Shown here piece by piece: positions 166-58,757 of a stretch of 64,000 nt of DNA. The position numbers and the translations under genes are program-made. Position 1 is the first letter of the stretch; the number at the start of each line of letters is the position of its first letter. Where the stretch lies: positions 224,001 through 288,000 of the forward strand of contig CAWCVB010000002.1 in NCBI GenBank assembly GCA_963798915.1. Reading direction: 5' to 3'. The notes below the pieces were generated by a model. It was not told the DNA's origin. It searched no databases and saw only the letters and a list, made by a program, of their open reading frames with translations. This DNA comes from an uncultured Gemmatimonadales bacterium (lineage in GTDB: Bacteria > Gemmatimonadota > Gemmatimonadetes > Gemmatimonadales > GWC2-71-9).

Positions 166-2882
166 CGGGTCACCGTGGCGATTCGCGTGTCCCAGTTGCC
201 GAGCAGACGCACCTCGCGCAGCGGAGGTTCGGTGGAGCGCTGCTTGAAAACGAAGCGATTGCCGCCCAGAGCCACGGCATAGTTGCGCCCGGGGAAGTCG
301 GCGACGGCAGCGCTGAAGAGCCACTGCGGCTCTCCGAACGGGCTGTCCGCGTTCGCCGGGTCGTAACGGACGGCATAGAAGCCCTGAACCACCCGGCCGC
401 GCGCCAGGTCACTTCGGTCACGGTCTCCCGCCGTCTTCACGAACGCGTTCCTGACATCCACCACGATGAATTCCTCACCGCCGGTGGCCCAGGCGGCCTG
501 GGAAAAGCGCGAGCCTCCCGCGATGACCAGGCGGCGGCCACGACCATCCAGGCTCCGCGCGACAATCGCCGTCTCCGACGCCCCGACCTCCTCGGAGACG
601 CGCCACTGCTCGTCCGGCGTGTAGCCACCAAGTGTGTTCTGGCCGATGAACGGCTCCATCGGGCGGCCGTCGGTGTGGAGGATCACCAGCTTGTCGTCCA
701 GCCAGGCACGGTAGCTCGCGGTGTCTGCCAGGGCGCTCACCTCCCTCGCTCCCTCGGGCAGCGCGAGGGCCCGCGGCGGCGCACTGCTCTCCGGATCGGC
801 GATGAATGTTCCGCTGTCGAGCGTGTACAGGACGTGTCGACCGTCGGGCATCCACTTCACTCCGGCGATGGTGGGCGCGCTGAACCATGGCGTCACCCGA
901 CCCGAGGCGATGTCGATGACCTGCAGTGCCCTGGCGCCCGTCGCCATCCCGACACTCACGACGAGGCGCCGGCCGTCAGGCGTCATGTCGATCGAATTGT
1001 AGTTTGCCGCCGGCGCCGGAATCGTGTCGAGCTTTCCGGTGCGGTCGGCCGCCACGAGCACTCCTTCCCCCGGAACGCCGCCCTGCGCCCACGCGACGAC
1101 CCCGCTTCGGGACACCCCGAATTGGGCGGCCCCACGGCCGCTTTCCACGCGGACACCTTCCGTCACGCTGACCGATGCGCCGGTGACCATTCCTTGCTTC
1201 GCATCGAACGGTGCGGCGTACAGCTGCCCGCCCGGCCCGACGTACAGGAGATGCCCGTCGCCATCGAGTCGGGCCATCGTCCCGCGGATCGCGTCGGCGG
1301 AGGTGGTAGATTGCCAACGCCGCAGCGCCGCCCTCGCGCCGGTCGTCAGGTTCATCACGCTCAGGCCGGACCGACTGGTGACGATGGCTCGGCGGCCGTC
1401 GGGGAGCGGCTCCGGCAGGCTGCACAAGTCGCAAGTGAACGCAGCCAGCGAGTCTCCGTTGGCTCCGAGCACCATCAGCTGCGTGGCGCGGCGGTTTGAC
1501 ACGAGGAGCCGACCATCCGGCAACCAGGCGCCGCCGAATGGATCGCTCAAGGTGGAAGACAGTCTGCGCACCTGGCCGTCGGCGAACGTGACCCGCTTGA
1601 GGTTGTTCGCCGCGAAGAAGGCGACGGCGTCACTGGCCGGCGAGAAGAAGGGCGCGATGGCGCCCTCGGTCCCGTCGAGAGCCCGCACGGAGAAATCGGC
1701 AAGCTGACGCAGGTACAGTTGGGTGCGGTTTCCGTGCCGGGCCACGAACACCAGCTTCGACCCATCCGGCGAGAGTGCGATCGTCGGCATTCCCTCCGGA
1801 TTGTTGGAGAACGGATCGAGGGCGAGTGAGTCCGGCAGCGTGACGCTCGCACCCCACGACACGATTCCCGGGGAGGACCTCGCCGGGCGCAGCCAACCCC
1901 ACAGCGCCGCGACCGCGAGGACGGAGAAGGCGACGATCCGGACCGCGCCCGCACGTCTTCCCGTGGCGGCGGCATTGCGCGTTCTCAACCCGGCGGTGCG
2001 CCGCGGCCGCGAGGCGGAGACATCGCCGAGCGCCGCCGCGAACTCCGCGGCGCTGGTGAAGCGGTCGGCCGGGAGCTTGGCCAGCGCCGTCAGCACCGCA
2101 TCCTCGACGGATTCGGGCACGGTGTCGCGCATGCGGGTCGGTGGCACCGGCTTTTCGGTCATCACCTTGGCGACGATCGCCTGCGCGGTGCTGCCGGTGA
2201 ACGGCGGATCGCCCACCAGCATCTCGTAGGTCATCGCACCGAGGGCGTAGATGTCGCTGCGGGCGTCGAGGGTGCGCTCGCCCATCGCCTGTTCCGGCGA
2301 CATGTAGTGCGGGGTGCCGAGACTCATGCCGGTCTCGGTCATGCGGGAGCCACCACTGGTGGCGGCGAGTGCGATCCCGAAGTCGGCGACCAGAGCGCGG
2401 CCATCGTGCAGGAGGATGTTCTCGGGCTTGATGTCGCGATGGATCACGCCGTGGCGATGGGCGTAGTCGAGCGCGCCGGCGACTTCGGTGGCGATGCGGA
2501 TCGCGTCAGGGATGGGGAGCTGCTTCTCGCGCGTCAGCCTGTCGCGCAGCGACTCGCCTTCGACGTAGGGCATGACGTAGTAGACGTGAGTCGTGGGTCG
2601 CGGGTCGCGAGAGTCGTCTGCGTACTCCACCTGTCCCGAATCGAACAGCGGGAGGATGTGGGGGTGCTGCAGGTTCGCGGTGGTCTGGATCTCCGACAGG
2701 AACCGCTCGGCGCCGATCACCGCGGCGAGTTCCGGACGCAGGACCTTGATCGCCACCCTGCGGTGGTGTTTCAGGTCCTCGGCGAGATAGACCGTGGCCA
2801 TTCCGCCCTGCCCCAGCTCGCGCTCGATGCGGTAGCGGTCGGCGAGGCCGGTCCGAAGCCCGGCCGACGGACCCTCGCTCAT
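162..2882 (-). CDS. K1: Hanks-type Ser/Thr kinase + TM + TolB/PD40-like beta-propeller (906 aa)
   Basis: True start [10 protein letters not shown] at 2882 (ATGA overlap with K2 stop). Motifs [56 protein letters not shown] repeats. The ORF-track extension to 3632 is a shadow of K2. Confidence 0.92.
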
Positions 2883-5527
2883 GGTGCCGCCTTCGGCGCG
2901 AGCTTGGCGAACCAGTTGTCGACCCAGACCACGTCGGGCGCCGCACCACCGGCCGCCCGACGCTCCCGCGTGAAGAGAAACGCGCCGTCGGCCAGCGCGG
3001 CATACCCCTGATGCCAGGGATCGACCGAGAACGCCGATGCGTCGAACAGCGGACGCACCGACAGCGCCGAAAACGTGGGCTTCGTGGCGATCTGCGCGGC
3101 CTCCAGGCGCGTGTCGGCATCGAGGAAGTACAGCTCGCGCCCATTGGGAGACCACACCGGCGAAGTGCCGCCGCGGCTCGAGATCTGCCAGGGCCCCCCG
3201 CTGGCCTCTGGAAACGGCTGCACGTACACCTCGTTCCGGCCCGAGGTGTTCGACGTGTACGCCAGCCATCGGCCGTCGGGGGAAAGCGCCGGGTGCGCTT
3301 CGGTGGCCGCTGTGGCCACGACCCGTCTCATGGCGGTATCGCTCGTCAGGCGCCGAGCCAGGATGTCCCCCGCGCCGGGCGTGCCGTTGTCGGTCCGCAC
3401 CACCAGCCACTCGCCGTCCCGGGAGAGCTCCAGCTCCTGCAGCAGCAGGTCCGAGCCGGCGACGACGTGTTCGGGACTGCTGCCGTCCGCCGGGCGGCTC
3501 ATGACACTGGTCGCGTTGGCGCTGTCGCGGAGCCAGAAGACCGACCGCCCGTCGCCGGACCACGTCGGCCGCTTGTCCGACCCCCCGAAGCTGACCCGGG
3601 TCGGCGGGGCGCCATCGAGCGGGGCGATCCACATCCCGCCGTCGACGGCATCCTGGCCGGACCAGATCGCGAGGCGGCCGCCAGTGGGGGACAGGGCGAA
3701 CGAATAGGCGGGACCGTGCCAGGCCGTATCCGCCGGGTAGGCCGCGCCGTCCCGGTTGACCCGCACCAGCTCGAGGTCGGGATGGGCACCGGGGTCACGG
3801 ACATAGACGATCGTCCCCGACGGCGATACGGTGAGCTCGGCAAAGCCGGGGCTCACGAACACACCGTCGAACGCCGGCACCGCCGCGCCGCCGATGGTGA
3901 GATGCGCCAGGTCGAACGGCACGATCATCGCGACGCCATCGGGCCGCACGTAGAGCAGTCGCCCCCCAGGCAGATACCACGCCTGCTCCACGTTCTCCAG
4001 CAGCCGGTTCACGCGGTGGGTGCGCAGGTCGAGCGCGTAGATCGCGAGGGAGCTGCACCGTCGGGCGCAGGCCTGGAAGAGAATGCCGCGCCCGCCGGGA
4101 AGCGGCTGGGGAAAGCGCATGCCGGCGCCCGGATTCGGTGTGTGGGGCAGCACCACCTCCGCCCGGCCGCCAGCGTCGCTGACCCGGCGCAGCGACTGGG
4201 TGGTCGAGGACACGTAGATGATGGTGCCGTCGTCCAGCCACGCGGGGCCGCCCGGCTCGGTGGCCGCGCTGTCACCGATGGTGCTCACCGGCCCGCCCGT
4301 CACGCGGATCTTCCTGAGCTGCCCGTCGGCCACGAAGGCGATCCACTGACCGTCGGGCGAAAATACCGGCATGAGCGCGCGCTCGGTGCCGGGAAGCACG
4401 ATCGCAGAGAGCGCGGAGCGGCGCTTGAGCACCAGGCGTGCCGCGGGTGAGTCCTCCTGGTACGCGACGATTGAGCCGTCCGGCGAGAGCGCGAGGAGGG
4501 GGGACCTCGAACGCGCCACCCGACGCTGCATCTTCGGGAGCGTGACAACCTGCCAGGTGGCGGTGAGCGCGGGAGCCGGTGGGTGCCGCCAGCGCCAGAC
4601 CAGGATCGGCAACGCGACCAGCGCGAGGACCCAGCCGGCCGCCATCGGAACGAGCAGCCGGTGCGAACGGGATGCGCGCGCCGTCTGCAGGGACAGGGTC
4701 GGCGTCGGGTTGGCGAGCGCCGCCGCGAATTCGGCCGCCGTCGCGAAGCGGTCGGCCGGAAGCTTCTGGAGCGCGTAGAGCGTCGCCATCTCGATTCCCG
4801 CCGGCACCGTCTTCCGGAGCTGATGCGGCGGCACCGGCTCGGCAGTCATCACCTTCGCCACGATCGCCTGCGCCGTAGGGCCGGTGAATGGCGGCTCCCC
4901 CGTGAGCATCTCGTAGAGCACCGCGCCCAGCGCGTAGACGTCGCTCCGGGCGTCGAGGGTCCGCTCTCCCATCGCCTGCTCGGGACTCATGTAGGTCGGC
5001 GTGCCGAGCGACATCCCGGTCTCGGTCATCCGCGTCCCCGCGCTCGAGGCGGCTAGCGCGATTCCGAAATCGGCCACCAGCGCGTTGCCGTCGTGCAGGA
5101 GGATATTTTCCGGCTTGATGTCGCGGTGGATGACGCCGTGGCGGTGCGCGTAGTCGAGGGCGGCGGCCACCTCGGTGGCAATCCGCACGGCCTCGGCGAC
5201 GGCGAGCTGCTTTTCGCGGGTGAGCCGGTCGCGGAGTGATTCGCCCTCGATGAACGGCATCGCATACCAGAGCAGTCCGCCGGCATCGCCCGAGTCGATC
5301 AGCCCCAGGATGTGCGGATGCTGCAGGTTCGCGGTGGTCTTGATCTCCGAGAGGAACCGGTCGGCGCCGATCACGGCGGCGAGCTCGGGGCGGAGGACTT
5401 TGATGGCGACTTGGCGATCATGCTTGAGGTCGTGGGCGAGGTAGACCGTGGCCATGCCGCCGGCGCCGAGCTCGCGCTCGATGGTGTAGCGGTCAGCGAG
5501 TGCGGCCCGGAGCGAGTCGATACTCAC
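2879..5527 (-). CDS. K2: Ser/Thr kinase + TM + PD40/TolB-like beta-propeller (882 aa)
   Basis: Complete kinase motifs, TM LLVPMAAGWVLALVALPILVW, many SPDG/WSGDG repeats. GTG start preceded by GGAGGTG Shine-Dalgarno. Confidence 0.93.
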   Translation of the reverse strand: MSIDSLRAALADRYTIERELGAGGMATVYLAHDLKHDRQVAIKVLRPELAAVIGADRFLSEIKTTANLQHPHILGLIDSGDAGGLLWYAMPFIEGESLRDRLTREKQLAVAEAVRIATEVAAALDYAHRHGVIHRDIKPENILLHDGNALVADFGIALAASSAGTRMTETGMSLGTPTYMSPEQAMGERTLDARSDVYALGAVLYEMLTGEPPFTGPTAQAIVAKVMTAEPVPPHQLRKTVPAGIEMATLYALQKLPADRFATAAEFAAALANPTPTLSLQTARASRSHRLLVPMAAGWVLALVALPILVWRWRHPPAPALTATWQVVTLPKMQRRVARSRSPLLALSPDGSIVAYQEDSPAARLVLKRRSALSAIVLPGTERALMPVFSPDGQWIAFVADGQLRKIRVTGGPVSTIGDSAATEPGGPAWLDDGTIIYVSSTTQSLRRVSDAGGRAEVVLPHTPNPGAGMRFPQPLPGGRGILFQACARRCSSLAIYALDLRTHRVNRLLENVEQAWYLPGGRLLYVRPDGVAMIVPFDLAHLTIGGAAVPAFDGVFVSPGFAELTVSPSGTIVYVRDPGAHPDLELVRVNRDGAAYPADTAWHGPAYSFALSPTGGRLAIWSGQDAVDGGMWIAPLDGAPPTRVSFGGSDKRPTWSGDGRSVFWLRDSANATSVMSRPADGSSPEHVVAGSDLLLQELELSRDGEWLVVRTDNGTPGAGDILARRLTSDTAMRRVVATAATEAHPALSPDGRWLAYTSNTSGRNEVYVQPFPEASGGPWQISSRGGTSPVWSPNGRELYFLDADTRLEAAQIATKPTFSALSVRPLFDASAFSVDPWHQGYAALADGAFLFTRERRAAGGAAPDVVWVDNWFAKLAPKAAP

Positions 5528-5586
5528 GTGCTCACCTCCACGGGGAGGCGGGCAGGGTGAGCTGGAAGGAACATGCCGGGACTCAT
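5524..5586 (-). CDS. Putative 20-aa coupling mini-ORF MSPGMFLPAHPARLPVEVST
   Basis: AAGGAG SD just upstream of ATG at 5586. Its TGA overlaps the K2 GTG start (GTGA at 5524-5527). Confidence 0.5.
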   Translation of the reverse strand: MSPGMFLPAHPARLPVEVST

Positions 5587-5608
5587 GCGGACTTCTCCTT
5601 GTGGTGCC

Positions 5609-8245
5609 CTACCACTGGGCGACCCACACATCGAGGGTCGGCACGTTGGTGCGCACGGCCATGCGAAGGCCGTCGTTGGAGAATGACACCCCCGCGGCAA
5701 ACGGGATCGGGAAGTCGCTCCCCCGCCGCAAGGCACCGGTGGCCGGGTCGAGTCGATAGAATCCCGCCGAGGCGACGGTCTCGGAGATGACCAGCTCGAC
5801 CGAGCCGTCGGGCATCCAGTGCAATCCGGGAACGAAGTCGAACACGGCGCGGAGGACGGCCGTGCCTTCGGCGGCGCCGGGCGGGACGCGGAAGACCACC
5901 ACCGAGTCGCCGACCGGATAGTTGAATCCCCAGCCGATGAGGCCGAAGCCCCACGGGGAGTCCTCGACTTCGATGACCCGGAGCGGCGGAATGCGCACGG
6001 TCCGGATCTCCCCGGATGGTGGACGAATCGCGAGTGAGGCCGGAGCGTCGGCGAATTGCCAGGCGAGTCCACCATCGGCCATCACCTCGAGCCCGGTGAT
6101 GGGGGCGCTGTCGGGAAATGTCCCCTGGGCACGCCGGCTGCCGTCGGTCAGTTCCAGCGAGGAAATCCTGATATTCGCTCCGTCACGGTGCAGCAGGACC
6201 ATCGCAGATCCGTCGACCGTGCGCGAACGATCGACCACGTCGGGAACGGGTGCGCCAAGATTCCGCTCCGGGCCGCCGGCGAACGGCTGCACGGCGAACT
6301 GCACCACCGGCATCCCCTGGCCCGAGGCCGATGTGCGAATCAGGATCACCGATTCCCCGTCGCTGCCCATCAGGACCGAGAGCTGTCCGGTCGCGGCGGC
6401 CACCTGCCGGGCTACCACCCCGGCGTCGGCGATCGTCCGCCGGGAAACCGCAACCGCGCTCGCTTGGTAGGTCCCCGCGAGGTAGGCGATGCCGCCCGCG
6501 GAGATGGTCAGGAGCTCCATGGGGATCGACGAGAGGACCACTTGCCGTTCGCGGCTGAACCGGCCGGCATCGTCGAGCCGGTAGGCAGCGATCGTGAGCA
6601 GCCCGCTGCCGCCGGAATCGGCCGTGGCCACCACGAATTCATCGGGGCGCCGGAATCCCGCGGATCGCACGCGCGGGAGTGACATCGAATCCCTGGCCAC
6701 GCCGCGGCGATCGAAGACGATGAGCTGGCCCGGCGACCCGCTGGCACCGATCACGATCCAGCGACCATCCGGCGAGGACCTCCAGGCGAACGCCGACGCA
6801 CCCTGACGCTCGATGATGAGGGAATCACCCCGGCTCGGATCGATCGACGTCGTGGCACGAAACGCGAGCCGCCCCGGCGCCAGCTCATCGGCGATCAGCA
6901 GGGAGTCGCCGCCCGCGATCGAACTCACGGCGCTGCCGGGAATGAGGCGCGGGCTCGCGCCGCCCAGGGCAGGCACCAGGTAGTACCCGATCGAGCCGTG
7001 CTCGGGCAGGCCGACGAACAGCAGATTGCGACCGTCGACGGTCCAGGCAACGTCATAGACTGCCGCGAGGTTGCCCACCGTCCGCAGGGTGCCCGAGCCG
7101 ACGACGTCCTGCACCACCAGGGCATAGGTACAGCGGCCGTTCGCACCACACTCCCGGTTGGCGTAGGCCACGCGCTGGCCGTCGGGCGAGAGCGCCACGG
7201 CACCCTCGGCGGTCCCCGAGACGGTCACCTGTCGGCGAGGTGCATTGAGGATCACCGGCGCGCTCGACGGCCGCAGCACACGCCAACCGATCGCGGCCAC
7301 GGCGACCACGGCGACACCGGCGAGAGCTGGCACCAGCCACCGCCGCCGGCCGGGCGCCGCCCGCCAGCCCGCGATCGGCCGGGTGGCCGTCGGCGTGATG
7401 CCCGTGCTTGGCGTGGCCTGCCCCTCGAGCAGGTGGAGGAGTTCCTCGGCGTGCTGGTACCGATCGGCAGGACGCTTCGCGAGACAGCGCATCACGATCT
7501 GTTCGAGTGGCGGCGCGATGGCGCTTCGGCGTCGGGCAACCGGCTCCGGCGCCTCGGTGACCTGCGCGGCGAGTACCTGCTGTGGCGTGGCGGCCACGAA
7601 CGGCGGGCGTCCGGTGAGCATCTCGTACGCCACCACGCCAAGCGAATAGATGTCGGACCGATGATCTACGTGCGGATCGGCGGAGGCCTGTTCGGGCGAC
7701 ATGTAGGTGGGCGTGCCGACCGCCACGCCGAGTGTCGTGATGGTGTTCCGGCCGGTGGCTTCGGAGATGGCCTTGGCCACCCCGAAGTCGGTGACCAGCG
7801 CGTGGCGCCCCGACATCATGATGTTGTCCGGCTTCACGTCGCGATGGACCACCCCCATCTGATGGGCGTGGGCCAGCGCATCGGCCACCTCCACCAGGAG
7901 TCGCACGGCCTCGTGCACCGGCAACTCCCCCTCGCGCGCCAGCCGCTCACGGAGCGATTGCCCCGGCACGTAGGGCATGACGTAGTAGAGGAAGCCGTCG
8001 GCGGCGCCGGAATCGAGCAGTGGCAGGATATGGGGATGTTGGAGCTGGGCGGCGATCTCGATCTCGCGCAGGAACCGGGTCGATCCCATCGACGCGGCGA
8101 GGTCTTCACGCAGGACCTTGATCGCCACTTTGCGATGGTGCTTGAGGTCCTCCGCCAGGTAGACGGTGGCCATGCCGCCCTGCCCGAGTTCGCGCTCGAT
8201 GCGGTAGCGGTCGGCGAGGGCTCCCCTGAGCGAATCGATGCTCAT
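5609..8245 (-). CDS. K3: Ser/Thr kinase + TM + divergent beta-propeller (878 aa)
   Basis: VAIK, HRDVKPDN, DFG, GTPTYMSPEQ; TM WLVPALAGVAVVAVAAIGW; ALSPDG/SSPDG repeats. Confidence 0.92.
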   Translation of the reverse strand: MSIDSLRGALADRYRIERELGQGGMATVYLAEDLKHHRKVAIKVLREDLAASMGSTRFLREIEIAAQLQHPHILPLLDSGAADGFLYYVMPYVPGQSLRERLAREGELPVHEAVRLLVEVADALAHAHQMGVVHRDVKPDNIMMSGRHALVTDFGVAKAISEATGRNTITTLGVAVGTPTYMSPEQASADPHVDHRSDIYSLGVVAYEMLTGRPPFVAATPQQVLAAQVTEAPEPVARRRSAIAPPLEQIVMRCLAKRPADRYQHAEELLHLLEGQATPSTGITPTATRPIAGWRAAPGRRRWLVPALAGVAVVAVAAIGWRVLRPSSAPVILNAPRRQVTVSGTAEGAVALSPDGQRVAYANRECGANGRCTYALVVQDVVGSGTLRTVGNLAAVYDVAWTVDGRNLLFVGLPEHGSIGYYLVPALGGASPRLIPGSAVSSIAGGDSLLIADELAPGRLAFRATTSIDPSRGDSLIIERQGASAFAWRSSPDGRWIVIGASGSPGQLIVFDRRGVARDSMSLPRVRSAGFRRPDEFVVATADSGGSGLLTIAAYRLDDAGRFSRERQVVLSSIPMELLTISAGGIAYLAGTYQASAVAVSRRTIADAGVVARQVAAATGQLSVLMGSDGESVILIRTSASGQGMPVVQFAVQPFAGGPERNLGAPVPDVVDRSRTVDGSAMVLLHRDGANIRISSLELTDGSRRAQGTFPDSAPITGLEVMADGGLAWQFADAPASLAIRPPSGEIRTVRIPPLRVIEVEDSPWGFGLIGWGFNYPVGDSVVVFRVPPGAAEGTAVLRAVFDFVPGLHWMPDGSVELVISETVASAGFYRLDPATGALRRGSDFPIPFAAGVSFSNDGLRMAVRTNVPTLDVWVAQW

Positions 8246-8304
8246 GCGCCGACCCCGTCGGGAAACCGAGTCGAAGGGCTTGTCCTGAGCCGTTCCAGGC
8301 TCAT
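8242..8304 (-). CDS. Putative 20-aa mini-ORF MSLERLRTSPSTRFPDGVGA (kinase-N-terminus-like)
   Basis: ATGA overlaps at both ends (8301-8304 and 8242-8245). First 9 codons resemble the K4 start ATG ACC CTG GAC CGC CTC AGG GCA AGC. Confidence 0.55.
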   Translation of the reverse strand: MSLERLRTSPSTRFPDGVGA

Positions 8305-8393
8305 CGCGAATGCCTGTCGCGCGGAAAAGCCGAAGGGGCGGTGTTGCGGCGGTCGAGCGCGACTGCCGTGAGCGCAGCGGAAGAGTCGTTCAC
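8301..8393 (-). CDS. Putative 30-aa mini-ORF MNDSSAALTAVALDRRNTAPSAFPRDRHSR (kinase-N-terminus-like)
   Basis: GTG overlaps the K4 stop (GTGA at 8390-8393), and its stop overlaps the next mini-ORF ATG. The MNDS start matches K18 (MNDSVEQL). Confidence 0.5.
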   Translation of the reverse strand: MNDSSAALTAVALDRRNTAPSAFPRDRHSR

Positions 8394-11017
8394 CGCTTTT
8401 CCCCGTGCGGTGCGGCGCGTGTCACCAGCCAGATATTCGCCTCGATCTGCTGGGCGCCATAGTAGATCGTGCGACCATCGGGCGCCGCCGCGATGTCGCC
8501 GTACTGGTCGGGCGGATGGGGAAGTGTCACGGCGATTTCGTGCCGCTCGAGCGTCATGATGTCCTGGATCATCAGCGCTCCGCTCTTGGTGAAGTACACC
8601 ACCCGCCGAAAGCCTGGCAGCCACGCGAGGTCGTAGCCCCGTGCGTCGGTGCTCAGCTGGCGCAGGTGACCGGTCGCCACTTCAAACAGGGCGCTGCCCC
8701 GCAATTCGCCCGACGGCATCACGATGGCGCCAGTCAACCAGCGTCCATCGTGCGACCAGTAGCTGGGCTGGAGGCTCCCGCCCCCGATGTTGAGATCCTT
8801 GATCTCCGTGCCAGTCCTCTCGGTGATCGGCCATGGTGCTGATCCGATTGTGGCACCTCGCTGGACATGGCCAATCACCAGGCGCTGGCCGTCCGGGGCG
8901 AACATCGGGAAGTAGCCCCCAGTGGGGATATCGGTGAGGCGCGTCCGGCCGCTGCCGTCGAGCCGAATCGACCAGCCGTCGTACTTCCCGCCGGAATTGG
9001 AAAAGAACGTGACCGCCTCGTTGTCCGGGGTGAAGCGCGGAAACCAGTCGCGCGCATCATCGTCGGTGAGGCGCGTCAGGCCACTCCCGTCGGGATGCAT
9101 GATGAAGATGTCCTGCTGCCGGTCCGGTGAGTTGAACAGCGCGATCCACTTTCCGTCCGGTGACACGTCGGTCGGGGTGAGAATGCCGGTGCGATGCTGA
9201 AGCAGCGTCACGGCCCCGGCCTTGCCCGTGACCGGGTCGAATGCGATGGCGGCCGGGTTCACCGATTCGATCTTGGCGCGAAACACGAGTGACATGCCGT
9301 CCGTCGACAGATGCGGCAGGTCCATGGCAACATCGACTCCGGACACGACGGGTTCGGGATTGCCGGTGGCGCGCCCCGACGCTTCGTTCATGGGAATCCG
9401 CCAGATGCCCATGGCGCCGCCGCGATCGCTCCCGAAATAGAGATACTTCCCGTCCGGTGACCAGACCGGTGCCCAGTCGACCGCTACATCATTCGTCACC
9501 TTGACGCGTGCGCCGCCGGCCGCGGGAATTGTCTGAAGATCGCGTTGCCCGTTGCTGCTCGTCCAGAAGGCAATCCGCGCTCCCGATGGCGACCACGCGG
9601 GCTGATACGCGTCGCCGGCCCCCAGGGAATCCAGTTGCTGCGGCGCGCCGCCAGACACGTCGACCGTCCACAAGCCCCCCGAATTCGACGTACTGTACGG
9701 CGAGTTTACTTCTTCGGAGCCGAACACGATGCGCCGGCCGTCGGGCGACCACGCCGGATTGGCGCCGAACGTGGTCAGCCGCCGAGCCGACTCGCCCGTG
9801 GCGCCCACCACGAAGATGCCGCCGCCCTGCTGATTGTAGGCGATCTGCTTTCCGTCGGGCGAGTACGCGGGCCAGACCTCGTCGTGCGTCGAATCACCCG
9901 CCACCAGCACCGGATTGCGCCCGCCGACCCGCTGCACGAAGATGTCCCAGGTGCCACGCGCATTGCTTGCGTACGCGAACGATTCGCCATCCGGGGAGAG
10001 ACTGGGACTGGTTTCCACGCCCGAGGCGTCGGTGAGTTGCGTAAAGGCCGACCATCGCGCTTCCGGCGTGCGAGTCAGGTGACCGAGCCACCAGCCGCCG
10101 ATGGCGGCGAGTGCTGCGACCATCGCGATTCCAGCGACGGGAATCGAGAAGCGGCGCCTCGCGTCTCGCGTCTCGGGTCTCGCCTCTCTCCCTTCCTGTT
10201 GCAGCGCCTCCGCAAACTTCGCGGCACTGGCAAACCGGTCGGCCGGCAACTTGGCGAGCGCCGTGAGCACCGCCGCTTCAATGTGAGATGGAACGGTGTC
10301 GCGCACCGTGCTGATGGGAGAAGGCTTCTCGGTCAGCACCTTCGCCACGATCGCCTGCACGCTGGATCCGCTGAACGGCGGATCGCCGGCGAGCATTTCA
10401 TAGGTGACGGCGCCCAGCGCGTAGATGTCGCTCCGCGCGTCGATAGCGCGTTCACCCATCGCCTGTTCGGGCGACATGTATTGCGGGGTGCCAAGGGACA
10501 GGCCGGTCTGCGTCATCCGCTGGCCGCCGGCGGTTGCCACGGCGAGCGCGATACCGAAGTCGGCGACCAGCGCATGGCCGCCCTGCAGCAAGATGTTCTC
10601 GGGCTTGATGTCGCGATGGACAATGCCGATGGAATGGGCGCTTCCCAGGGCATCGGCGACTTCGCGGGCGATGAGCACTGCATCGCCAATCGGCAACTGA
10701 CGCTCGCGCTCGAGACGGGTGCGAAGCGTCTCGCCGGTAACGTACGGCATGACATAGTAGAGCAGCCCGTTGGCCTCGCCCGAGTCCAGCAGCGGCAGGA
10801 TGTGCGGATGCTGCAGCTTCGCGGTCGTCCTGATCTCGGTCAGGAAGCGCTCGCCACCAAGTGCGGCGCCGAGATCGGGATGCAGCACCTTGACGGCCAC
10901 CTGGCGGTCGTGCTTGATGTCGTGCGCCAGGTACACCGTCGCCATCCCGCCCGCACCCAGTTCCCGCTCGATGCGGTAGCGGTCAGCCAGGCTTGCCCTG
11001 AGGCGGTCCAGGGTCAT
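8390..11017 (-). CDS. K4: Ser/Thr kinase + TM + PD40-repeat double beta-propeller (875 aa)
   Basis: Complete kinase motifs; TM IPVAGIAMVAALAAIGGWWL; regular PD40 repeats (PSLSPDG, PAYSPDG, PAWSPDG, PVWSPDG, PRFTPD). Confidence 0.94.
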   Translation of the reverse strand: MTLDRLRASLADRYRIERELGAGGMATVYLAHDIKHDRQVAVKVLHPDLGAALGGERFLTEIRTTAKLQHPHILPLLDSGEANGLLYYVMPYVTGETLRTRLERERQLPIGDAVLIAREVADALGSAHSIGIVHRDIKPENILLQGGHALVADFGIALAVATAGGQRMTQTGLSLGTPQYMSPEQAMGERAIDARSDIYALGAVTYEMLAGDPPFSGSSVQAIVAKVLTEKPSPISTVRDTVPSHIEAAVLTALAKLPADRFASAAKFAEALQQEGREARPETRDARRRFSIPVAGIAMVAALAAIGGWWLGHLTRTPEARWSAFTQLTDASGVETSPSLSPDGESFAYASNARGTWDIFVQRVGGRNPVLVAGDSTHDEVWPAYSPDGKQIAYNQQGGGIFVVGATGESARRLTTFGANPAWSPDGRRIVFGSEEVNSPYSTSNSGGLWTVDVSGGAPQQLDSLGAGDAYQPAWSPSGARIAFWTSSNGQRDLQTIPAAGGARVKVTNDVAVDWAPVWSPDGKYLYFGSDRGGAMGIWRIPMNEASGRATGNPEPVVSGVDVAMDLPHLSTDGMSLVFRAKIESVNPAAIAFDPVTGKAGAVTLLQHRTGILTPTDVSPDGKWIALFNSPDRQQDIFIMHPDGSGLTRLTDDDARDWFPRFTPDNEAVTFFSNSGGKYDGWSIRLDGSGRTRLTDIPTGGYFPMFAPDGQRLVIGHVQRGATIGSAPWPITERTGTEIKDLNIGGGSLQPSYWSHDGRWLTGAIVMPSGELRGSALFEVATGHLRQLSTDARGYDLAWLPGFRRVVYFTKSGALMIQDIMTLERHEIAVTLPHPPDQYGDIAAAPDGRTIYYGAQQIEANIWLVTRAAPHGEKR

Positions 11018-11076
11018 CAGGTCAATCTCCGAGACGCGTGTGCCGAAGGGGCGGCGGCAAGACGGTCGAGCCTCAT
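11017..11076 (-). CDS. Putative 19-aa mini-ORF MRLDRLAAAPSAHASRRLT (kinase-N-terminus-like)
   Basis: ATG overlaps the K5 stop (ATGA at 11073-11076), and its TGA overlaps the K4 ATG (TGATG at 11015-11019). RLAAA matches K16/K17 RLAAALSDRY. Confidence 0.55.
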   Translation of the reverse strand: MRLDRLAAAPSAHASRRLT

Positions 11077-13762
11077 CTGGCTCCGCCGCTTTCGGCCACC
11101 CGGCGCCGGAACTCCGTGATCCAGTTGGGCGAAACTACCAGCTGGTAGTCGTTCTGCTCGGGAATCGCCGTCAGGAAGCGCCGGCCATCGCGGGTCGGCT
11201 GATAGAGGGCCGAAAAGAACTGTGCATCGAGCCCGGCGCTGGGAAAGGAGGCCATGAGCGTGTCGCGGCCGAGCAATGTGATGACGGGCCTGGTCGCCAG
11301 GCGCGCCTCGACGAGCGCCGAACCGCTCAGATAGTAGAGCCGGGTGCCATCGGCCGACCACATCGGGGCCACGCCACCGCCGACGGAAACCTGGAGCTTG
11401 GTGGAAGGATCGGGATAGGACCGGAGATAGATCTCGTCCTGCCCCGACTCGTCATCCACCAGGGCAACCCATTTTCCGTCGGGAGAGAACTCCGGCGCGT
11501 GGAAGCTGGCGTGGGACACAAGGTAGTCGTGCACCGCCGGGGTCGAGTCCAGTATCAGGCGCTGCAGGCTCCATACGTCCCCGGGAATCACCGAGAGCAG
11601 CACCGAGCGGCCGTCCGGCGACATGACTGCCCCCCCGGCAGCGAAGGGCAGGTCGACGAGCTTCTCCGGCGCAACCCCGCCGGATGCCCGCTGTCGCCAC
11701 AGCGTGTTCCCGGTTTCGCCGGTCGAGAAATAGAGAACGTCGGATCCGTCCGGAGTCCACGAAACGGAGGTGACGGTATTGACCGTCGTCAGCCGGGAAA
11801 AGGTGCCCAGTGACAGGTCTTCGATCCAGATATCGCTCTGACCATGGTCGCCAGTCACCACGGCGATGCGGCGTTCATCGGGGGAAAGCCGCAGGGCTTG
11901 GTACTGGCCGGCCGACGGCCCCACGGCACGGGGCGGACCGCCCGGGGCCACCCACGAGATCCTGCCGGTCGCGCTCCCGATCGAGGTTATCAGCGCGCCA
12001 CCGCGGGAAATGTAGATCTCCGAATTCCCGTTCAGACCGGGCACAACCGGAACGGGGTCGTGCACCGGAATCGGTGATCCGACCACCTTTCCGGCCCCGG
12101 CGTCCAACCGGACCGACATGACGGCGCCGTCGGCCTTGAGGTACACCAGCCACCCGTCGAGGATTGCCAGGGGCCGGATTGCCTTGATGCCAAGCCGGGT
12201 GACCGCCCCGTCCTTGAGGGAGGCGACTGCCAGCTGGGCCGAGGCGAGGCCACCGAACCAGACGGTAAAGACCGCGTAGCTGCCGTCCGGGGTACTGAGC
12301 GGCCAGAGATGATTCCGCTCTCCCGTGGTGGTGTCCACCTGCGTCAGGGCGGCCGGCGTTCCGCCGGCAGCACTCACCCGGGATAGCCCGGCATATGACC
12401 CCCATGTTCCCAACAGAATCTCGTTGTTGACGGTCCAGTCGGCACCGTTGTACGCGCCGGCATCCGCGATTGTCACCGGCGCGCTGCCGTCGAGCCTGAC
12501 CTTGCGCTCCTTGCCCTGCACTTCGAACCCCACCCACTGCCCGTCGGGCGAGAAGTACGGCTGGGCCGCCCCGATGGTACCGGGAATCTCACGCGCCTCC
12601 AGTTGGTTGGTGCGCAAGAAGTACAGCCGGGTCGTAAGGGAGGCGCCGCCGGAGTTGACGGGGGAGACGCTGTAGACCACGGTGCCGCCGTCGGGCGAGG
12701 TGGCGGCGGGCCATGGGTAGCTGCGAACCGGCCTGGTGCTGTCGGTGGTGGTCAGCACGTACTTGATGGGTGGGACCACCAGGGGGACCGGCCGCGGCCG
12801 GAGCAGCATCGCCACACCACCGAGCGCCAGCACCGCGATCGCCGCCACCCCGATGAACAGCGGGTCCCGCAGGCGCGAGCGCCCGGTGGGAGCTGCAAGC
12901 CCACCGGCCGGCATTGCTCTGCTCGCGGCAGGTGCCAGCTCCGGCCGGTTCAGCGCATCGCTGAACTCCGCCGCGCTGGCGAAACGGTCGGCCGGCAGCT
13001 TCTCAAGCGCCGTCAGCACCGCCGTCTCCACATGCGCGGGGATGGTGTGCCGCTGCGGCAGCATCGGCCGGGGCGACTCCGTCACCACCTTGGCCACGAT
13101 CGCCTGCGCCGTGCTTCCGGTGAACGGCGGATCCCCCACCAGCATCTCGTAGGTCATCGCCCCCAGGGCGTAGACGTCCGAGCGCGCCGTGATCTCCCGC
13201 TCCCCCATCGCCTGCTCCGGGCTCATGTAATGCGGCGTCCCCAGGCTCATCCCCGTCTCCGTCATCCGGGTCCCGCCCGCACTGCTCACCGCCAGCGCGA
13301 TCCCGAAATCGGCCACCAGCGCGCTGCCGTCATGCAGCATCACGTTCTCGGGCTTGATGTCCCGGTGGATGATCCCGTGCCGGTGGGCATAGTCCAGCGC
13401 CCCCGCCACTTCCGTCGCGATCCGCACCGCGTCGGCCACCGGCAACTGCTTCTCCCGGTTGAGCCGGTCGCGCAGCGACTCGCCCTCGACGTAGGGCATG
13501 ACGAAGAAGGCGGTGCCGGTGACCTCGCCCGAGTCAATCAGCCCCAGTATGTGCGGATGCTGCAGCGCCGCGATGGTGCGAATCTCCCGCACGAACCGCT
13601 CGGCCCCAATCACCGCCGCCAGCTCCGGCCGCAGCACCTTGATGGCCACGTTGCGGCCATGCTTCAGGTCCTCGGCCAGGTAGACGGTGGCCATGCCGCC
13701 CTGCCCGAGCTCCCGCTCGATGCGGTAGCGGTCAGCCAGGGCGGTGCGGAGACGCTCGACCG

Positions 13763-13766
<4 letters not shown>
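11073..13766 (-). CDS. K5: Ser/Thr kinase + TM + PD40/TolB-like beta-propeller (897 aa)
   Basis: True start GTG at 13766 (MTVERLRTALADRY; GTGA overlap with K6 stop). Complete kinase motifs; TM PLFIGVAAIAVLALGGVAMLL; SPDG repeats. Confidence 0.92.
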
Positions 13767-16048
<2,282 letters not shown>

Positions 16049-16049
16049 C

Positions 16050-18469: not shown

Positions 18470-18485
18470 ATCGTGCTCCTTGCCT

Positions 18486-18512
18486 GGCGGTACGGCGGTA
18501 CGGCGGTACGGC
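18486..18512. repeat. 8-bp tandem repeat (GGCGGTAC)x3 + GGC
   Basis: Directly visible in the K8-K7 gap, just upstream (minus strand) of the K7 Shine-Dalgarno. Confidence 0.9.
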
Positions 18513-18556
18513 CCGAAGATGACGTCATTGCGAGGCGGCGCCAGCCGCCGTGGAGT

Positions 18557-31830: not shown

Positions 31831-31834
<4 letters not shown>

Positions 31835-50365: not shown

Positions 50366-50428
50366 TCACTCGAGTGACACGTGCCGAGCCGCGGCTTCCA
50401 GCCGCGAGCCCGACTGGTCAACGCTCAT
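50366..50428 (-). CDS. Putative 20-aa mini-ORF MSVDQSGSRLEAAARHVSLE (kinase-N-terminus-like)
   Basis: ATG overlaps the K18 stop (ATGA at 50425-50428). SRLEAA matches K7 MAELSRLEAAL. Confidence 0.45.
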   Translation of the reverse strand: MSVDQSGSRLEAAARHVSLE

Positions 50429-53109: not shown

Positions 53110-54591
53110 GGATGTTGCTCGACGGCCTGGTGTGCCAGTGTCACCAGCGACCAGTAGGGCGGGGGATATCCGTCGCGCGCCCGGGCTTCGGCAGCCGCCC
53201 CACGCAGGTCCGCCGCCAGCGCGCGCTGGCGCGTCACGAACGCCTCGTGTGCCAGTGCTGATGATGCCGACATCCCTTCCGGAACAGGCCCGTGGCCGCC
53301 CAGGGCTGACCAGCACCCAGCTGTATCCCTTGGCCAGCCGCACGAGCGGCAGCCGATACCATGCATGATCCAGGGCTCGGCCCTCATCCGCCTGGTCGAG
53401 CATGGCATCAAGTACCGCGTTATCCAGGTGATCCTGCCAGAGCGCCGCGCTGTCCCGCCACTCGGCGACGACCACCAGTTGAGGATCGTACTCCAGATCT
53501 GATGGTTCCTGCGTCTCGAAGTGCCGGACGCCGAGCTCGGAGAGCCAGCGTCGGATGCCGGGGCGGGAGATGGTGGAGCGTCCCATCCACAGCGTGATGC
53601 CCTCGTCGTGGTAGGCGGACGAGGCCACCTCCGAACAGAAGAGGTGCGAGGGATCACTGTAGTCCATCGTGAAGTCGTACGGGATGTGACCGGCCCGCGC
53701 GCGTGCCAGCATGCGCGACGCGGCACGATGCGGCAGCATGGGGTCGGCTTCAAGAGCGGGCAGGTCCGCCCTCGGACGCAGCACCATCACGCGCAGCTTC
53801 TTGTCGGCCAGGTACTGCTCGGCGCTGGACACGGCGACGCCGATCTCGATGTGCGCTTCGATGACCGACACCTGGCGCGTGGCCGAATCGATGTAGACCA
53901 GGCCGACGTGCGAAAAATTTCCCGGGTAGTCATTGCCGCGGGCGATGAGCGCTGACGTGGGATAGCCGCCGCGGGAGACCAGCATGTCACCCGAATGAAT
54001 GCGAACGCCATGCACCAGGGCGGACGGCGTGGCGGACGGTTCGTCGCGTCCGAGAAGAAGCGCGGGACTGCTGTCGGGGTGCTGCAGCATCGCCTCCTCC
54101 ACCGCGGCCCGGGCGCCATAGAGCAGGCGATAGAGGCGTTGCCTTGCCTCGAGCTGGTCGGGATCCCAGTGACGCGACTGGTCCTTGATAACCTCGCGGA
54201 GCCGGCCGGCAAGCGCGACGTAGCCCCGGAGCTGCGAGGGACAGGCCGCGACGACGGGGCCGGTGGCGAAGAAGTCATCTTCCAGGGCCTGGAGGCGGGG
54301 ATCTGTCGGCCTCACCGGGGTGCCGGCGAGACTGTCGAGGTCTGCCGCCACGTCAGCGATCCTGAGGGCGGATGTATTGGTGGCTCCGCTGCAGCCGGCC
54401 GCTCGCGCAGCGACGAAGCGGCCCTCGAGCGCGCGCCAGAGCGAGTCCTGGTTCCAGGCAAAGGGAACACCGCGTGGCGGCGCGGGCGGCACCCTTACCG
54501 AGCGAGCGGGAACCGAGAGGAGCAGCACACCGAGGACACCAGCGAGGGTGATCCCGAGGCGTGACCGGGCAGTCAAGAGGCGAGCTCGCAC
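53106..54591 (-). pseudogene. YiiX/YebB-like permuted papain-like (NlpC/P60) cysteine hydrolase with N-terminal signal/anchor; one-base insertion at about 53304 (probably artefact)
   Basis: GDMLVSRG, FSHVGLV (His), PYDF...LFCSEV (Cys) and PSDL motifs in permuted order. The C-terminus continues in another frame (LGGHGPVPEGMS...YPPPYWSL) ending at 53106. Start GTG 54591 or TTG 54576. Confidence 0.8.
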
Positions 54592-54595
54592 GCTT

Positions 54596-55957: not shown

Positions 55958-58695
55958 GGCGAGGCGAGCTTCAACTGCTTCAGTTCGGCACGCCAGTTGA
56001 AGATCACGTTGAGGGACGTCGCGTCACTGCCGCCGGCGGTCACCATCAGGAACCGGCGGCCATCGGGATGCACGTCGTACCCGCGGTAGTACTCCTGCAT
56101 CCCCAGCCCGGTGCCATCAAACAGCAAGTGCGGGACACCATGGGTGAACGAGCGTCCGGTGGTGACGGGGACCGCGTACATGTCACCCCGCTGACTTCGG
56201 AAGAAGAGCTCCTTCCCGTCTCGCCGCCAGAGCGGCTCGACACCTCCGCCGACCGATACCACGTAGCGCGCCGAGTCCACGTTGGGAAATGGACGAACAT
56301 GAACCTGTGGGGTGCCGGCTTCCGCGGAGACATAGGCCAGCCATTGGCCATCGGGCGAAAGTGCGATGGCATAATTGTCGTAGCGCGACGGGAGGATGGA
56401 ACGCGGCGTGCTGTCAACGCCGTTCCTGATCTGCATCAGGTGACGCGACCCGGGCCCCGAGCCTTCCGATCGGAAGAGGGTGAAGCGTCCCTGGGGATCG
56501 AAGAGGATCTCGTCAAGTCCGACGTCCGGGGGCGAAGCCGGTTCGGCGGCATCGCTCCCGTCGGCCCGGCGCATCCAGGCCGTGCGCCGGCCATCCCGGC
56601 TCGCGAGATAGGCGACCCGCTTGCCGTCGGGCGTCCAGACAGGGCGGTTAGCGCTGACGACGTCAAAAGAAAGTCGGCTGAGCGCGCCGGTGGCGAGTTG
56701 TTCGATCCAGATCTGGTCATCTCCCAATTCACTTCGCGTTACCGCGATCTGGCTGGCATCCGGGGAAAGAGCAAGTGCGGAAACGACCAGCGCCGGATCG
56801 GACGGAACCGCGGTCCGCTGGCCATCGCGGTCCACCCAGACCAGCCCGGCCCGGTCGCCGGATGTGGGCTGGTACACCAGGGTGCCGTTCGACGACACCG
56901 CGAATTGCACGGTGCCGTTGCTTCCGTCGGTCTGCACGTTGCGACGGACCAGCACGGGAGTTCCCGCGAGGCGACCGCCCCTCGCATCAAGCGGCGCCTC
57001 CAGAAGATTGCCCTCGGCGGTGCCGATCACGATCATGCCGCCGCCGATGTAGCGGACATAGGAGCCCGGGGCAAGATCGGTGACGGCGCCCGAGGCGACG
57101 TCGACGAGGCCGATATGGTTGGAGGTGATCGAGCCTTTCCAGACCATGACCAGCGCCTGCCGGCTGCCAGGCAGCACGTCGGGAAAGTCGAGTTCCTGGA
57201 TGGCCTGGGTCGAGTCCGGCCGGGCGATCCGCGTGACGGCGCCACCGGAGGATGATACGCGCGCCAGGTTGCGGCTGGCGTCGGTGAAGTAGATCTGGCC
57301 GTCATCGGCCCAGTCGGCTCCGCCGAACTGCGCCACGGAATCAGCGACCAGCGTGCGAGCGACTCCGCCGGTGAGCGCGATCACCTTGAGCGCGAGACGG
57401 CCTCCGTCAGCGGTGACGAATCCCACCGATTGCCCGTCAGGAGAGAAGAACGGCGCGAACGCGCCCTTGGTGTCAGGGAGCGGGCGGGCGGCGGGCTGGT
57501 CCAGTTCACGGACCCAGAGTGCGTTGTCTGCCCCGTTGGGCCCGACAAACACAACGCGCCGCCCGGAGGGGGCAATGGCGAGCCTGATATTGGCGATGGC
57601 GCGAACCCGGACGCTGTCGCCCAGGGTGATGGTCGCGTGCACCACCTCATCCGGCCCGACGCTGCCGGGGTCGGCTCCCTTTCCTCGCAGCATGAGACTT
57701 GCCGCGAGTGCCAGGACCGCCGCCACCGCAACGCCGATCAGCGCAAGGCTGCGGCGGTCGCGGATCCAGACGCGCGCGGGGCCAGCGGCATGCGCATCCA
57801 TTCCCGCCATGGTGTAGCCCGGATCGTTGAGCGCCTCGGCAAATTCCCTGGCGGTGGCGAACCGATCAGCGGGCAGGCGTTCGACGGCCTTGGCTACCGC
57901 CGCCGCGACGTTGGGTGGCACGGACTTCCGGAGCCGGGTGACCGGGGCCGCTTCCTCGGTCACGATCTTCATGATGATCTGCTGCGCCGAGGTGCCCATG
58001 TGAGGCGGCTCGCCGGTCAGCATTTCATAGAGCACGCTGCCGAGCGAATAGATATCGCTCCGGCCGGTGATCTCCTTGTCGGCGGTGGCCTGCTCGGGGC
58101 TCATGTAGTGCGGGGTGCCAAGCGACATCCCGGTCTCGGTCATCCGGCCGCCCGCGGCGGCACTCAAGGCCAGCGCAATGCCGAAGTCGGCCACCATGGG
58201 CCGGCCGTCGTGGAGGAGAATGTTCTCCGGCTTGATGTCGCGGTGGATCACCCCGTGGCGGTGGGCGTAGTCCAGGGCATCGGCCACGCTGGTGGCGATG
58301 CGCACCGACTCCTCAATGCCCAGCTGGGTCTCGCGGTCGAGCTTGCTGCGGAGGGTCTCGCCGTCGATGAACGGCATGACGTAGTACAGGAGGTCTACGG
58401 TCGACTGTCGACCGTCGACCGTCGACCGTTGACTGTCGACCCTGGCTATTCCCGAATCAAACAGCGGGAGAATGTGCGGATGCGAGAGTGCCGCGGTGGT
58501 CTTGATCTCGACCACGAAGCGCTCGGCGCCGATTACGGCGGCGAGCTCGGGCTTGAGGACCTTGAGCGCGACCTTGCGATCGTGCTTGAGGTCCTCGGCA
58601 AGATAGACCGTGGCCATGCCGCCCTGGCCCAGCTCACGCTCGATGCGGTAGCGGTCGGATAATGCGCTGGAAAGACGGGTGAGAGCGTCAGTCAT
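55954..58695 (-). CDS. K19: Ser/Thr kinase + TM + PD40/TolB-like beta-propeller (913 aa)
   Basis: Complete kinase motifs; TM LALIGVAVAAVLALAASLML; SPDG repeats; heptamer-repeat loop insert identical to K14. Confidence 0.94.
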   Translation of the reverse strand: MTDALTRLSSALSDRYRIERELGQGGMATVYLAEDLKHDRKVALKVLKPELAAVIGAERFVVEIKTTAALSHPHILPLFDSGIARVDSQRSTVDGRQSTVDLLYYVMPFIDGETLRSKLDRETQLGIEESVRIATSVADALDYAHRHGVIHRDIKPENILLHDGRPMVADFGIALALSAAAGGRMTETGMSLGTPHYMSPEQATADKEITGRSDIYSLGSVLYEMLTGEPPHMGTSAQQIIMKIVTEEAAPVTRLRKSVPPNVAAAVAKAVERLPADRFATAREFAEALNDPGYTMAGMDAHAAGPARVWIRDRRSLALIGVAVAAVLALAASLMLRGKGADPGSVGPDEVVHATITLGDSVRVRAIANIRLAIAPSGRRVVFVGPNGADNALWVRELDQPAARPLPDTKGAFAPFFSPDGQSVGFVTADGGRLALKVIALTGGVARTLVADSVAQFGGADWADDGQIYFTDASRNLARVSSSGGAVTRIARPDSTQAIQELDFPDVLPGSRQALVMVWKGSITSNHIGLVDVASGAVTDLAPGSYVRYIGGGMIVIGTAEGNLLEAPLDARGGRLAGTPVLVRRNVQTDGSNGTVQFAVSSNGTLVYQPTSGDRAGLVWVDRDGQRTAVPSDPALVVSALALSPDASQIAVTRSELGDDQIWIEQLATGALSRLSFDVVSANRPVWTPDGKRVAYLASRDGRRTAWMRRADGSDAAEPASPPDVGLDEILFDPQGRFTLFRSEGSGPGSRHLMQIRNGVDSTPRSILPSRYDNYAIALSPDGQWLAYVSAEAGTPQVHVRPFPNVDSARYVVSVGGGVEPLWRRDGKELFFRSQRGDMYAVPVTTGRSFTHGVPHLLFDGTGLGMQEYYRGYDVHPDGRRFLMVTAGGSDATSLNVIFNWRAELKQLKLASP
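58393..58441. repeat. Heptamer tandem repeat (GTCGACY-like x7) in K19, identical to 37095-37143
   Basis: Direct sequence comparison. Confidence 0.9.
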
Positions 58696-58757
58696 GGTGC
58701 ACTCCCGCTCGAGCGGTGGCCGTCGGCGACAGCGGGTGCCAGCCGATCTTGGTTCAT
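58692..58757 (-). CDS. Putative 21-aa mini-ORF MNQDRLAPAVADGHRSSGSAP (degenerate kinase start joined to kinase-like end)
   Basis: ATG 7 nt after the amidohydrolase stop; TGA overlaps the K19 ATG (ATGA at 58692-58695). Aligns to MTPDRLTAALADRYR (K12); the tail resembles the K6 end SGVAP. Confidence 0.5.
   Translation of the reverse strand: MNQDRLAPAVADGHRSSGSAP

Follow-up and report, generated by a model that had tools for sequence, protein, structure and literature searches.

Short reading frames resembling kinase gene starts at the junctions of a Gemmatimonadales sensor-kinase array

A stretch of 64,000 nucleotides (nt) from an uncultured Gemmatimonadales bacterium (contig CAWCVB010000002.1, positions 224,001 to 288,000; hereafter the window) contains a long array of Ser/Thr kinase genes on its minus strand, and the gaps in this array hold very short open reading frames (ORFs) that begin like the kinase genes themselves. 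Comparisons with the kinase genes give good support to a kinase origin of the heads of these mini-ORFs, the stubs being remnants of kinase 5' ends. The explanation that we favour, with confidence and doubt about equally balanced, is that the mini-ORFs are vestigial kinase 5' ends persisting as upstream ORFs of ~20 codons, in an arrangement compatible with coupling of translation by termination and reinitiation.

Mini-ORFs occupy the gaps of the kinase array

The contiguous array consists of 18 kinase genes running on the minus strand from 45315 down to the edge of the window. Its 17 junctions comprise 12 stop/start overlaps of 4 nt (i.e. ATGA or GTGA), one 1-nt spacer and four gaps (Table 1). 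Three mini-ORFs sharing a CCTTCG motif and chained to their neighbours had been proposed for these gaps from the sequence (hereafter the original prediction). The ORFs, their peptides, the motif positions and the chain of start/stop overlaps were all recovered exactly as described, on the minus strand, with CCTTCG at 11049..11044 in unit C, 8336..8331 in unit A and 8277..8272 in unit B. Unit C shares an ATGA overlap with the stop of kinase K13766 and a TGATG (1-nt overlap) with the ATG of K11017, and its tail contains GGAG 10-13 nt before this ATG. The chain then continues from K11017 through ORF 8393 and ORF 8304 (unit B) to K8245 via GTGA, ATGA and ATGA, respectively. ORF 8393 starts with a GTG overlapping the K11017 stop and contains a 30-nt spacer followed by unit A (8363..8305), which has a decayed head without an ATG of its own, CCTTCG and a 32-nt tail.

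Each unit is made up of a kinase-like head of 27 nt, which as a rule begins with ATG, and a 32-nt tail. All four gaps hold a 59-nt unit, as the two gaps beyond those of the original prediction also have an ATG at -59 (5586 and 18528), and five units of the window (starts 18528, 11076, 8363, 8304 and 5586) begin exactly 59 nt before the next kinase start of the array. The first of the additional units, g5, has AAGGAG 8 nt before its ATG and retains this motif, the ATG, an open frame and a stop overlapping the GTG of K5527 despite a decayed head and the loss of CCTTCG. Its tail is in register with those of unit B and of a unit from another species (L051, see below), with 14 of the 24 positions after the first 8 nt identical in each case (p about 0.001-0.002). 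Membership of the second, g18, is weak, with only its head resembling the L051 stub head (14/27, p 0.006); kinase 18469 starts with ATGG, so g18 has no overlapping stop and its frame continues for 84 codons. Within g18, at about 18489-18512 (minus), an 8-nt repeat, GCCGTACC, is present in three head-to-tail copies. A further fragment in the window, stub58, unambiguously represents a kinase 5' end. Its alignment with kinase 5' ends (i.e. K13766) extends over the R-I-E-R-E codons and includes a deletion of 1 nt, and there is an overlap between its stop and the ATG of kinase 58695; stubs can thus be pieces of kinase gene starts.

Table 1. Coordinates of the units, array gaps, split frames and flanking kinase genes in the window
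Feature	Position	Strand	Description	Basis
Unit C	11017..11076	-	19 codons, peptide MRLDRLAAAPSAHASRRLT	ORF and sequence
Unit B	8242..8304	-	20 codons, peptide MSLERLRTSPSTRFPDGVGA	ORF and sequence
ORF 8393	8301..8393	-	Last 20 codons VALDRRNTAPSAFPRDRHSR	ORF and sequence
Unit g5	5524..5586	-	20-codon ORF, MSPGMFLPAHPARLPVEVST; absent from the original prediction	ATG 59 nt before GTG of K5527
Unit g18	18470..18528	-	Absent from the original prediction	ATG 59 nt before ATG of frameshifted kinase 18469
stub58	58692..58757	-	62-nt kinase 5' fragment, peptide MNQDRLAPAVADGHRSSGSAP	Kinase 5' profile, E 0.04
Array gaps	18556-18470, 11072-11018, 8389-8246, 5608-5528	-		Junction survey
Split kinase frames	37159-37392, 22136-22386, 17777-17888	-		ORF frames
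K13766	11073..13766	-	Kinase; stop overlaps ATG of unit C	Pfam, ORFs
K11017	8390..11017	-	Kinase, Pkinase and PD40 beta-propeller; stub units on both flanks	Pfam, ORFs
K8245	5609..8245	-	Kinase, downstream of units A and B	Pfam, ORFs
K5527	2879..5527	-	Kinase, downstream of unit g5	Pfam, ORFs

The heads score as kinase starts

Similarity of the heads to kinase starts was scored with a weight matrix of the nine codons preceding L-A-D-R-Y in the 20 window kinases, for which 20 codon-block shuffles gave a null maximum of 15.4. The head of unit C (11076) scored 24.8, a tie with the best true kinase, and that of unit B (8304) scored 20.0, inside the kinase range. Unit A (8363) was marginal at 15.6 and was outscored by a site that is not a kinase start (23359, 18.7). 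These scores uphold the proposed family of mini-ORFs mimicking the kinase N-terminus, its last member marginally so. Homology of the stub heads to kinase 5' ends is apparent both from the matrix and from the match of stub58 to the kinase 5' profile. In pairwise comparisons, units A and C reached a z of 6.2, with 17/27 head positions identical, and unit B and the 5' end of K11017 a z of 9.6, with 23/27. The site at 23359 is a kinase-head-like 27-mer (VVAERLKTA; 23333-23359, minus) in the interior of kinase 24157, distant from all start sites.

Pattern counts were less informative. The minus-strand pattern ATG-N24-CCTTCG, which had been expected to be enriched, matched twice in the window against 0.57 expected, and 11 of 100 shuffles reached two matches, so that the enrichment is not significant alone. 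A degenerate pattern derived from the three copies gave 3 matches in the window and 0 in 100 shuffles; this count is circular, the pattern having been made afterwards.

Related units are present in other Gemmatimonadota

The units were compared with 71 loci of other Gemmatimonadota species, gathered by a search with K11017 (917 kb; best-segment identity at most 82%). These loci contain 140 further kinase starts, i.e. 160 with those of the window. They assign the window to Gemmatimonadota, with Gemmatimonadaceae as the probable family. Running a matrix of all 160 heads over the upstream regions identified the unit in three other species, i.e. in loci L050 and L051 and, as a variant, in L016. 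Both L050 and L051 contain a 22-codon ORF that has a kinase-like head, GCTTCG or CCTTCG and a 32-nt tail and that overlaps, by GTGA or ATGA, a kinase whose head is of the same type. The L016 variant is a 41-codon ORF that resembles two units and includes CCTTCC as well as CCTTCG. It begins in an overlap with the stop of a gene for a family-2 glycoside hydrolase; the gene upstream of the L051 unit is also not a kinase, and each of these two units heads an array.

All unit lengths are 2 mod 3, with 59 nt for the window units, 62 nt for stub58 and 65 nt for L050 and L051. The last two are longer since their heads have two extra codons, the tail still being of 32 nt. Eight of nine units (C, B, g5, g18, stub58, L050, L051 and L016) have a start codon, the exception being unit A. 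Stop/start overlaps occur at both ends of C, ORF 8393 and B, at the 3' end only of g5, stub58, L050 and L051, and at the 3' end of L016, and are lacking in g18. In the tails of C, A, B, L050 and L051, positions 2-6 (CTTCG), 8 (C) and 23 (G) are invariant. Positions 19-25 are purine-rich and correspond to 8-14 nt before the kinase start, the expected location of a Shine-Dalgarno (SD) sequence. Downstream of a tail there is only one type of kinase head, which has a rare AGG or AGT codon (i.e. CTCAGGGCAAGC-like), and the heads that precede tails are diverse.

The tails fall into two groups on ungapped in-register identity. One contains B, g5 and L051 (B-L051, 22/32; B-g5, 17/32; g5-L051, 17/32) and the other C, A and L050 (C-L050, 18/32). 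Additional members were sought in the 71 loci by other means. Searches by blastn-short with the units and tails yielded no significant match and the exact degenerate three-copy pattern had 0 matches. The window-based head matrix gave seven sites at 17 or above, two of which were divergent true kinases and none of which was stub-like, and a profile built from five full units detected no further full-length member. The closest relative of K11017 (L003, 67% identity over the best segment) was uninformative at the junction because the ~320-nt gap downstream has a different sequence and the locus starts inside the gene.

A probable seam between the heads and the kinase domains

Several results point to recombination at the seam between head and kinase domain as a probable feature of these genes. 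In L050 (468-5868), adjacent kinases share ~90% nt identity over 780 nt, starting exactly at S-D-H-Y, and have unrelated heads and sensor domains; the shared stretch is a sharply bounded gene-conversion or mosaic tract. The stub-bearing kinases do not form one clade in the kinase-domain tree and are instead scattered. The 5' module of K8245 (tail plus head) and that of the L051 kinase are identical at 43/59 positions (tail 22/32, head 21/27), and the kinase domains of the two are not close. The head of unit B copies that of K11017, the kinase upstream (23/27). The L050 stub head has R-L-T-D-A in common with the head of the upstream kinase, with a head match of only ~64% as counted from the alignment.

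Remnants of other sizes were also present in the arrays. In L067 (about 17520-17905) an intact kinase is immediately preceded by one of which only the first 58 residues and the last ~70 (ending DNWFTELSRKGAKP) are left, still in frame. Kinase 5' fragments of ~44 codons or more are located upstream of intact kinases in L013 (about 9985-10108) and L018 (about 12420-12540); both retain L-A-D-R-Y through G-G-M, and the L013 fragment ends on the ATGA of a kinase start.

Two further upstream elements were observed. A first-in-array kinase of L041 has, 71 nt upstream of its head, a head-like copy (about 430-480) that matches this head at 21/27 positions (null maximum of 19 in 600 trials); the distance is again 2 mod 3. 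In L040, four kinases with TTG or GTG starts (motifs at 1495, 4570, 7345 and 15667) are preceded by a repeated element, one frame of which reads RHPGE[RS]RGP... or ...KAVHAK[PS]RSRED, and which may be a dispersed intergenic repeat.

Signals of translation and RNA structure

An SD-like 4-mer precedes 4/9 stub starts and 10/20 kinase starts, as compared to 9.6% of background ATG/GTG sites. Conservation of a tail peptide was not detected, the residues being variable and only P-S-[AT] common to the units. Predicted RNA folds for the three units and for the entire gap at 8389-8246 had z scores of -0.34 to +0.54, i.e. were no more stable than shuffles. An Rfam scan of 5000-19000 produced no match in the gaps and two weak matches elsewhere, far below gathering scores. 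No promoter or terminator was predicted in the array gaps, Tandem Repeats Finder reported nothing in the gaps scanned (the g18 gap stretch being outside the run), the units contained no strong inverted repeats and no recombinase was found. The combination taken to identify a leader peptide (i.e. a conserved motif with alternative RNA structures or a terminator) was not present in the units.

Two other identities were rejected for the units. A CRISPR-like repeat-spacer array was discounted as the repeats are only 48-63% alike and number at most 3 units. A longer N-terminus read in the frame of the kinase would lack a start codon, and nothing is conserved upstream of P-F-[GD].

A passive relay as the proposed explanation

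Under the explanation that we favour, the stubs would have originated by partial duplication or recombination at the point where the variable head meets the conserved kinase domain, a seam at which paralogue homology and gene-conversion tracts would also begin. One old unit would have been inherited and then copied along with kinase 5' ends, so that the copies share CCTTCG and an exact length, and its head may at times have been renewed by exchange with neighbouring kinase heads. The tail would act as a 32-nt leader carrying the SD-like purine run for the real kinase start. A ribosome finishing the upstream gene, or starting at the SD of the stub, would translate ~20 codons before terminating at the kinase start, where it would reinitiate. 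As the stub-to-kinase distance is 2 mod 3 and the kinase begins with ATGA or GTGA, the stub frame ends at the start codon of the kinase, and a 59-nt insert thus need not break the putative relay used at 12 of 17 junctions. The architecture is kept even where the heads have decayed (i.e. g5 and L051), which fits a passive relay. A relay preserving translational coupling was among the ideas of the original prediction and is plausible, as it agrees with the geometry (i.e. unit lengths of 2 mod 3 and a stop on the next start) and with the SD-like motifs. The sequences show the anatomy and the homology of the units and their presence in several species; that the stubs are translated and coupled to the kinases, and the order of the evolutionary events, are inferences.

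A number of results weigh against this explanation. The stub frame is reflected neither in the substitutions nor in the G+C of the codon positions. Open frames prove little, since ~60% of random 20-codon stretches are stop-free at this base composition (our own estimate), and the overlapping ATGA is automatic because kinases begin with M-T or M-S. Only five full members plus variants are present among the 160 kinase starts. The source of the tails was not apparent, as they were not significantly similar to kinase sequence after the head (p 0.58 or more), to kinase 3' ends (not significant once self-overlaps were set aside) or to the stub58 tail (p 0.14 or more). Between the two tail groups (C/A/L050 and B/g5/L051) identity is at the random level, yet CTTCG, the kinase-like head and the length of 32 nt have been conserved. 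Neither a relay nor debris explains why CTTCG and a spacing of 32 nt should be invariant in a tail that is otherwise randomised. Simple neutral decay does not predict such conservation, and a further constraint may therefore exist.

With regard to the tail of unit B, an origin from a PD40 blade was suggested by an exact 14-mer shared with K21193 (F-P-D-G, in frame); the match was judged to be due to chance (E 0.046), with no extension on either side.

Alternative explanations

It is possible that the stubs are pure junk, i.e. debris that is neither translated nor functional, left by duplications and deletions in a birth-and-death kinase array and looking like ORFs through copied gene starts and high G+C; we regard this as somewhat unlikely. 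The tail peptides are not conserved and neither their composition nor their substitutions are coding-like in the stub frame, as debris would have it, and the absence of an ATG from unit A and of an overlapping stop from g18 are of the same kind. Frameshifted kinases and further remnants are common, our base-composition estimate predicts both open 20-codon frames and ATGA overlaps by chance, and ATG-N24-CCTTCG is not significant by itself. Debris accounts less well, however, for units kept in at least three other species with an exact tail length and no indels, for the survival of a start codon, an SD-like motif and the frame in head-decayed members such as g5 and L051, and for a CTTCG that is invariant amid a randomised tail. 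As much of the architecture would arise in the absence of selection as well, the relay and pure junk are roughly evenly matched.

More active functions can be envisaged. The 59-nt unit could be a conserved leader module of Gemmatimonadota sensor-kinase genes, a short ORF repeating the first codons of the kinase ahead of an invariant CTTCG box fixed at 32 nt before the kinase start, that is translated and sets or gates the amount of kinase as a relay or checkpoint in chained arrays, and that may also supply homology for the swap, gain or loss of kinase 5' modules or whole kinases; we consider this unlikely. A regulatory leader ORF that gates translation of the downstream kinase, through pausing on the nascent peptide or its codons or through an unrecognised factor binding a head-CTTCG box at a set distance from the start, is distinctly doubtful. 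Such a leader would explain why the head, the CTTCG box and the fixed 32-nt spacing are kept across species as the spacer drifts, why the unit heads arrays after non-kinase genes in L016 and L051, and why SD-like motifs lie ahead of stub starts. Leader peptides are typically of this size, the stubs being of 19-22 codons. It is opposed by the lack of a conserved peptide past P-S-[AT], by the absence of alternative RNA structures (fold z as given above), a terminator, a promoter or an Rfam match, and by the small number of members, a handful among the 160 kinase starts. A conserved peptide, or a decoy of the kinase N-terminal helix, had also been suggested in the original prediction; evidence for this idea was not found, the tail residues being variable and the tail composition not coding-like in the stub frame.

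The mini-ORFs had alternatively been proposed to be empty-slot scars, left where recurrent excision, whether site-specific or guided by homology, took out kinase cassettes at a fixed breakpoint, which now seems very improbable. Scars in a more general sense are favoured by the kinase remnants of several sizes present in the arrays (i.e. in L067, L013 and L018 and upstream of K58695), the L067 gene being deleted internally and in frame before the next kinase. The match of the unit B head to its neighbour K11017 and the R-L-T-D-A shared by the L050 stub head and the upstream kinase are also as expected had a copy of the upstream kinase been lost through head-to-head recombination. The same unit, 32-nt tail and CTTCG junction, however, are present in other species, where the tails are homologous in register, indicating that the CCTTCG junction was inherited by descent and did not result from recurrent excision. 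In addition, the gene before the unit is not a kinase gene in either L016 or L051, the tails are unlike kinase 3' ends, and neither a recombinase nor inverted repeats nor attC core sites were detected. A filled slot, with a full kinase at the position of a stub, was looked for in the 71 related loci and none was found.

A structured RNA or DNA element is extremely improbable, be it a recombination site or, for instance, an SD-sequestering hairpin in which CCUUCG would pair with the purines 12 nt further on. By eye, and with no statistical test, CCUUCG can pair with tail positions 18-24 in units A, B and C and also in L051, some U-A pairs being changed to U-G. The pairing is absent in L050 and unused in minimum-free-energy folds, which are no stabler than shuffles, and there is no Rfam family and no attC core.

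Relation to known systems and significance

Two published accounts (PMC6728339, PMC10666635) describe ATGA and TGATG overlaps as coupling translation by termination-reinitiation, with coupling needing overlaps or very short distances. As in such pairs, co-directional overlaps of -4 or -1 chain kinase to stub to kinase. The middle ORF differs in being a 19-22-codon remnant of the downstream family's own start with no protein partner, and coupling is here a prediction from sequence.

Bacterial leader ORFs include attenuator and arrest peptides such as the erm, tna and trp leaders. Like these, the stubs are ORFs of ~20 codons immediately before a gene whose SD lies within the leader ORF. Unlike them, the stubs have no conserved arrest motif, alternative hairpins, terminator or conserved peptide tail, and they stop on the start codon and not upstream of a structure. 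Remnants in birth-and-death arrays are similar in their homology to the 5' ends of neighbouring paralogues, in the frameshifted or deleted paralogues alongside and in mosaic evolution with conversion tracts, whereas the stubs are very short, exactly fixed in length and kept across species with a start codon and frame. Integron attC sites, also called '59-base elements', are likewise units of ~59 nt between co-oriented array genes. This likeness in length is coincidental, and attC identity was rejected as 0/6 units have an RYYYAAC or GTTRRRY core, no notable inverted repeat or fold is present and the unit is homologous to a gene start. Overall, the units combine known kinds, being gene remnants that double as stop/start-overlapping upstream ORFs. 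Listings of the literature on Gemmatimonadetes kinase arrays yielded nothing on such stubs.

If the relay is real, a gene remnant would have been co-opted simply through a length that keeps ribosomes in register, and unbroken stop/start chaining would be required for the expression of arrays with 17 or more sensor kinases. Under any of the readings, the stubs mark the boundary between head and kinase domain as a seam of kinase shuffling, which helps to explain how Gemmatimonadota build very large and diverse sensor-kinase repertoires. Annotation pipelines will miss the stub ORFs and may misplace the starts of the adjoining kinases.

The kinase genes of the window

The window has a G+C content of 66-72% and contains 20 Ser/Thr kinase genes with the kinase N-terminal motif, all on the minus strand. 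Of the 20 window proteins submitted to Pfam, 19 matched PF00069, the exception being a 398-aa 3' piece of a frameshifted gene; 14 matched PD40 at E up to 0.001, and others matched TPR or FGE-sulfatase. The genes flanking the stubs are thus Hanks-type Ser/Thr protein kinases with C-terminal PD40 beta-propeller, TPR or other sensor domains. The paralogues are old, with kinase domains 51-88% identical and sensor parts only about 21-44%. Three of the 20 genes (starts 37392, 24157 and 18469) are split by a frameshift into two overlapping frames and are either frameshifted pseudogenes or the product of assembly indels.

Individual genes illustrate the high diversity of the sensor parts. Kinase 34752 (31831-34752, minus) has FGE-sulfatase-like and dienelactone-hydrolase-like domains. 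The frame of kinase 53109 (50425-54681, minus) is open far upstream, forming an ORF of 1418 aa.

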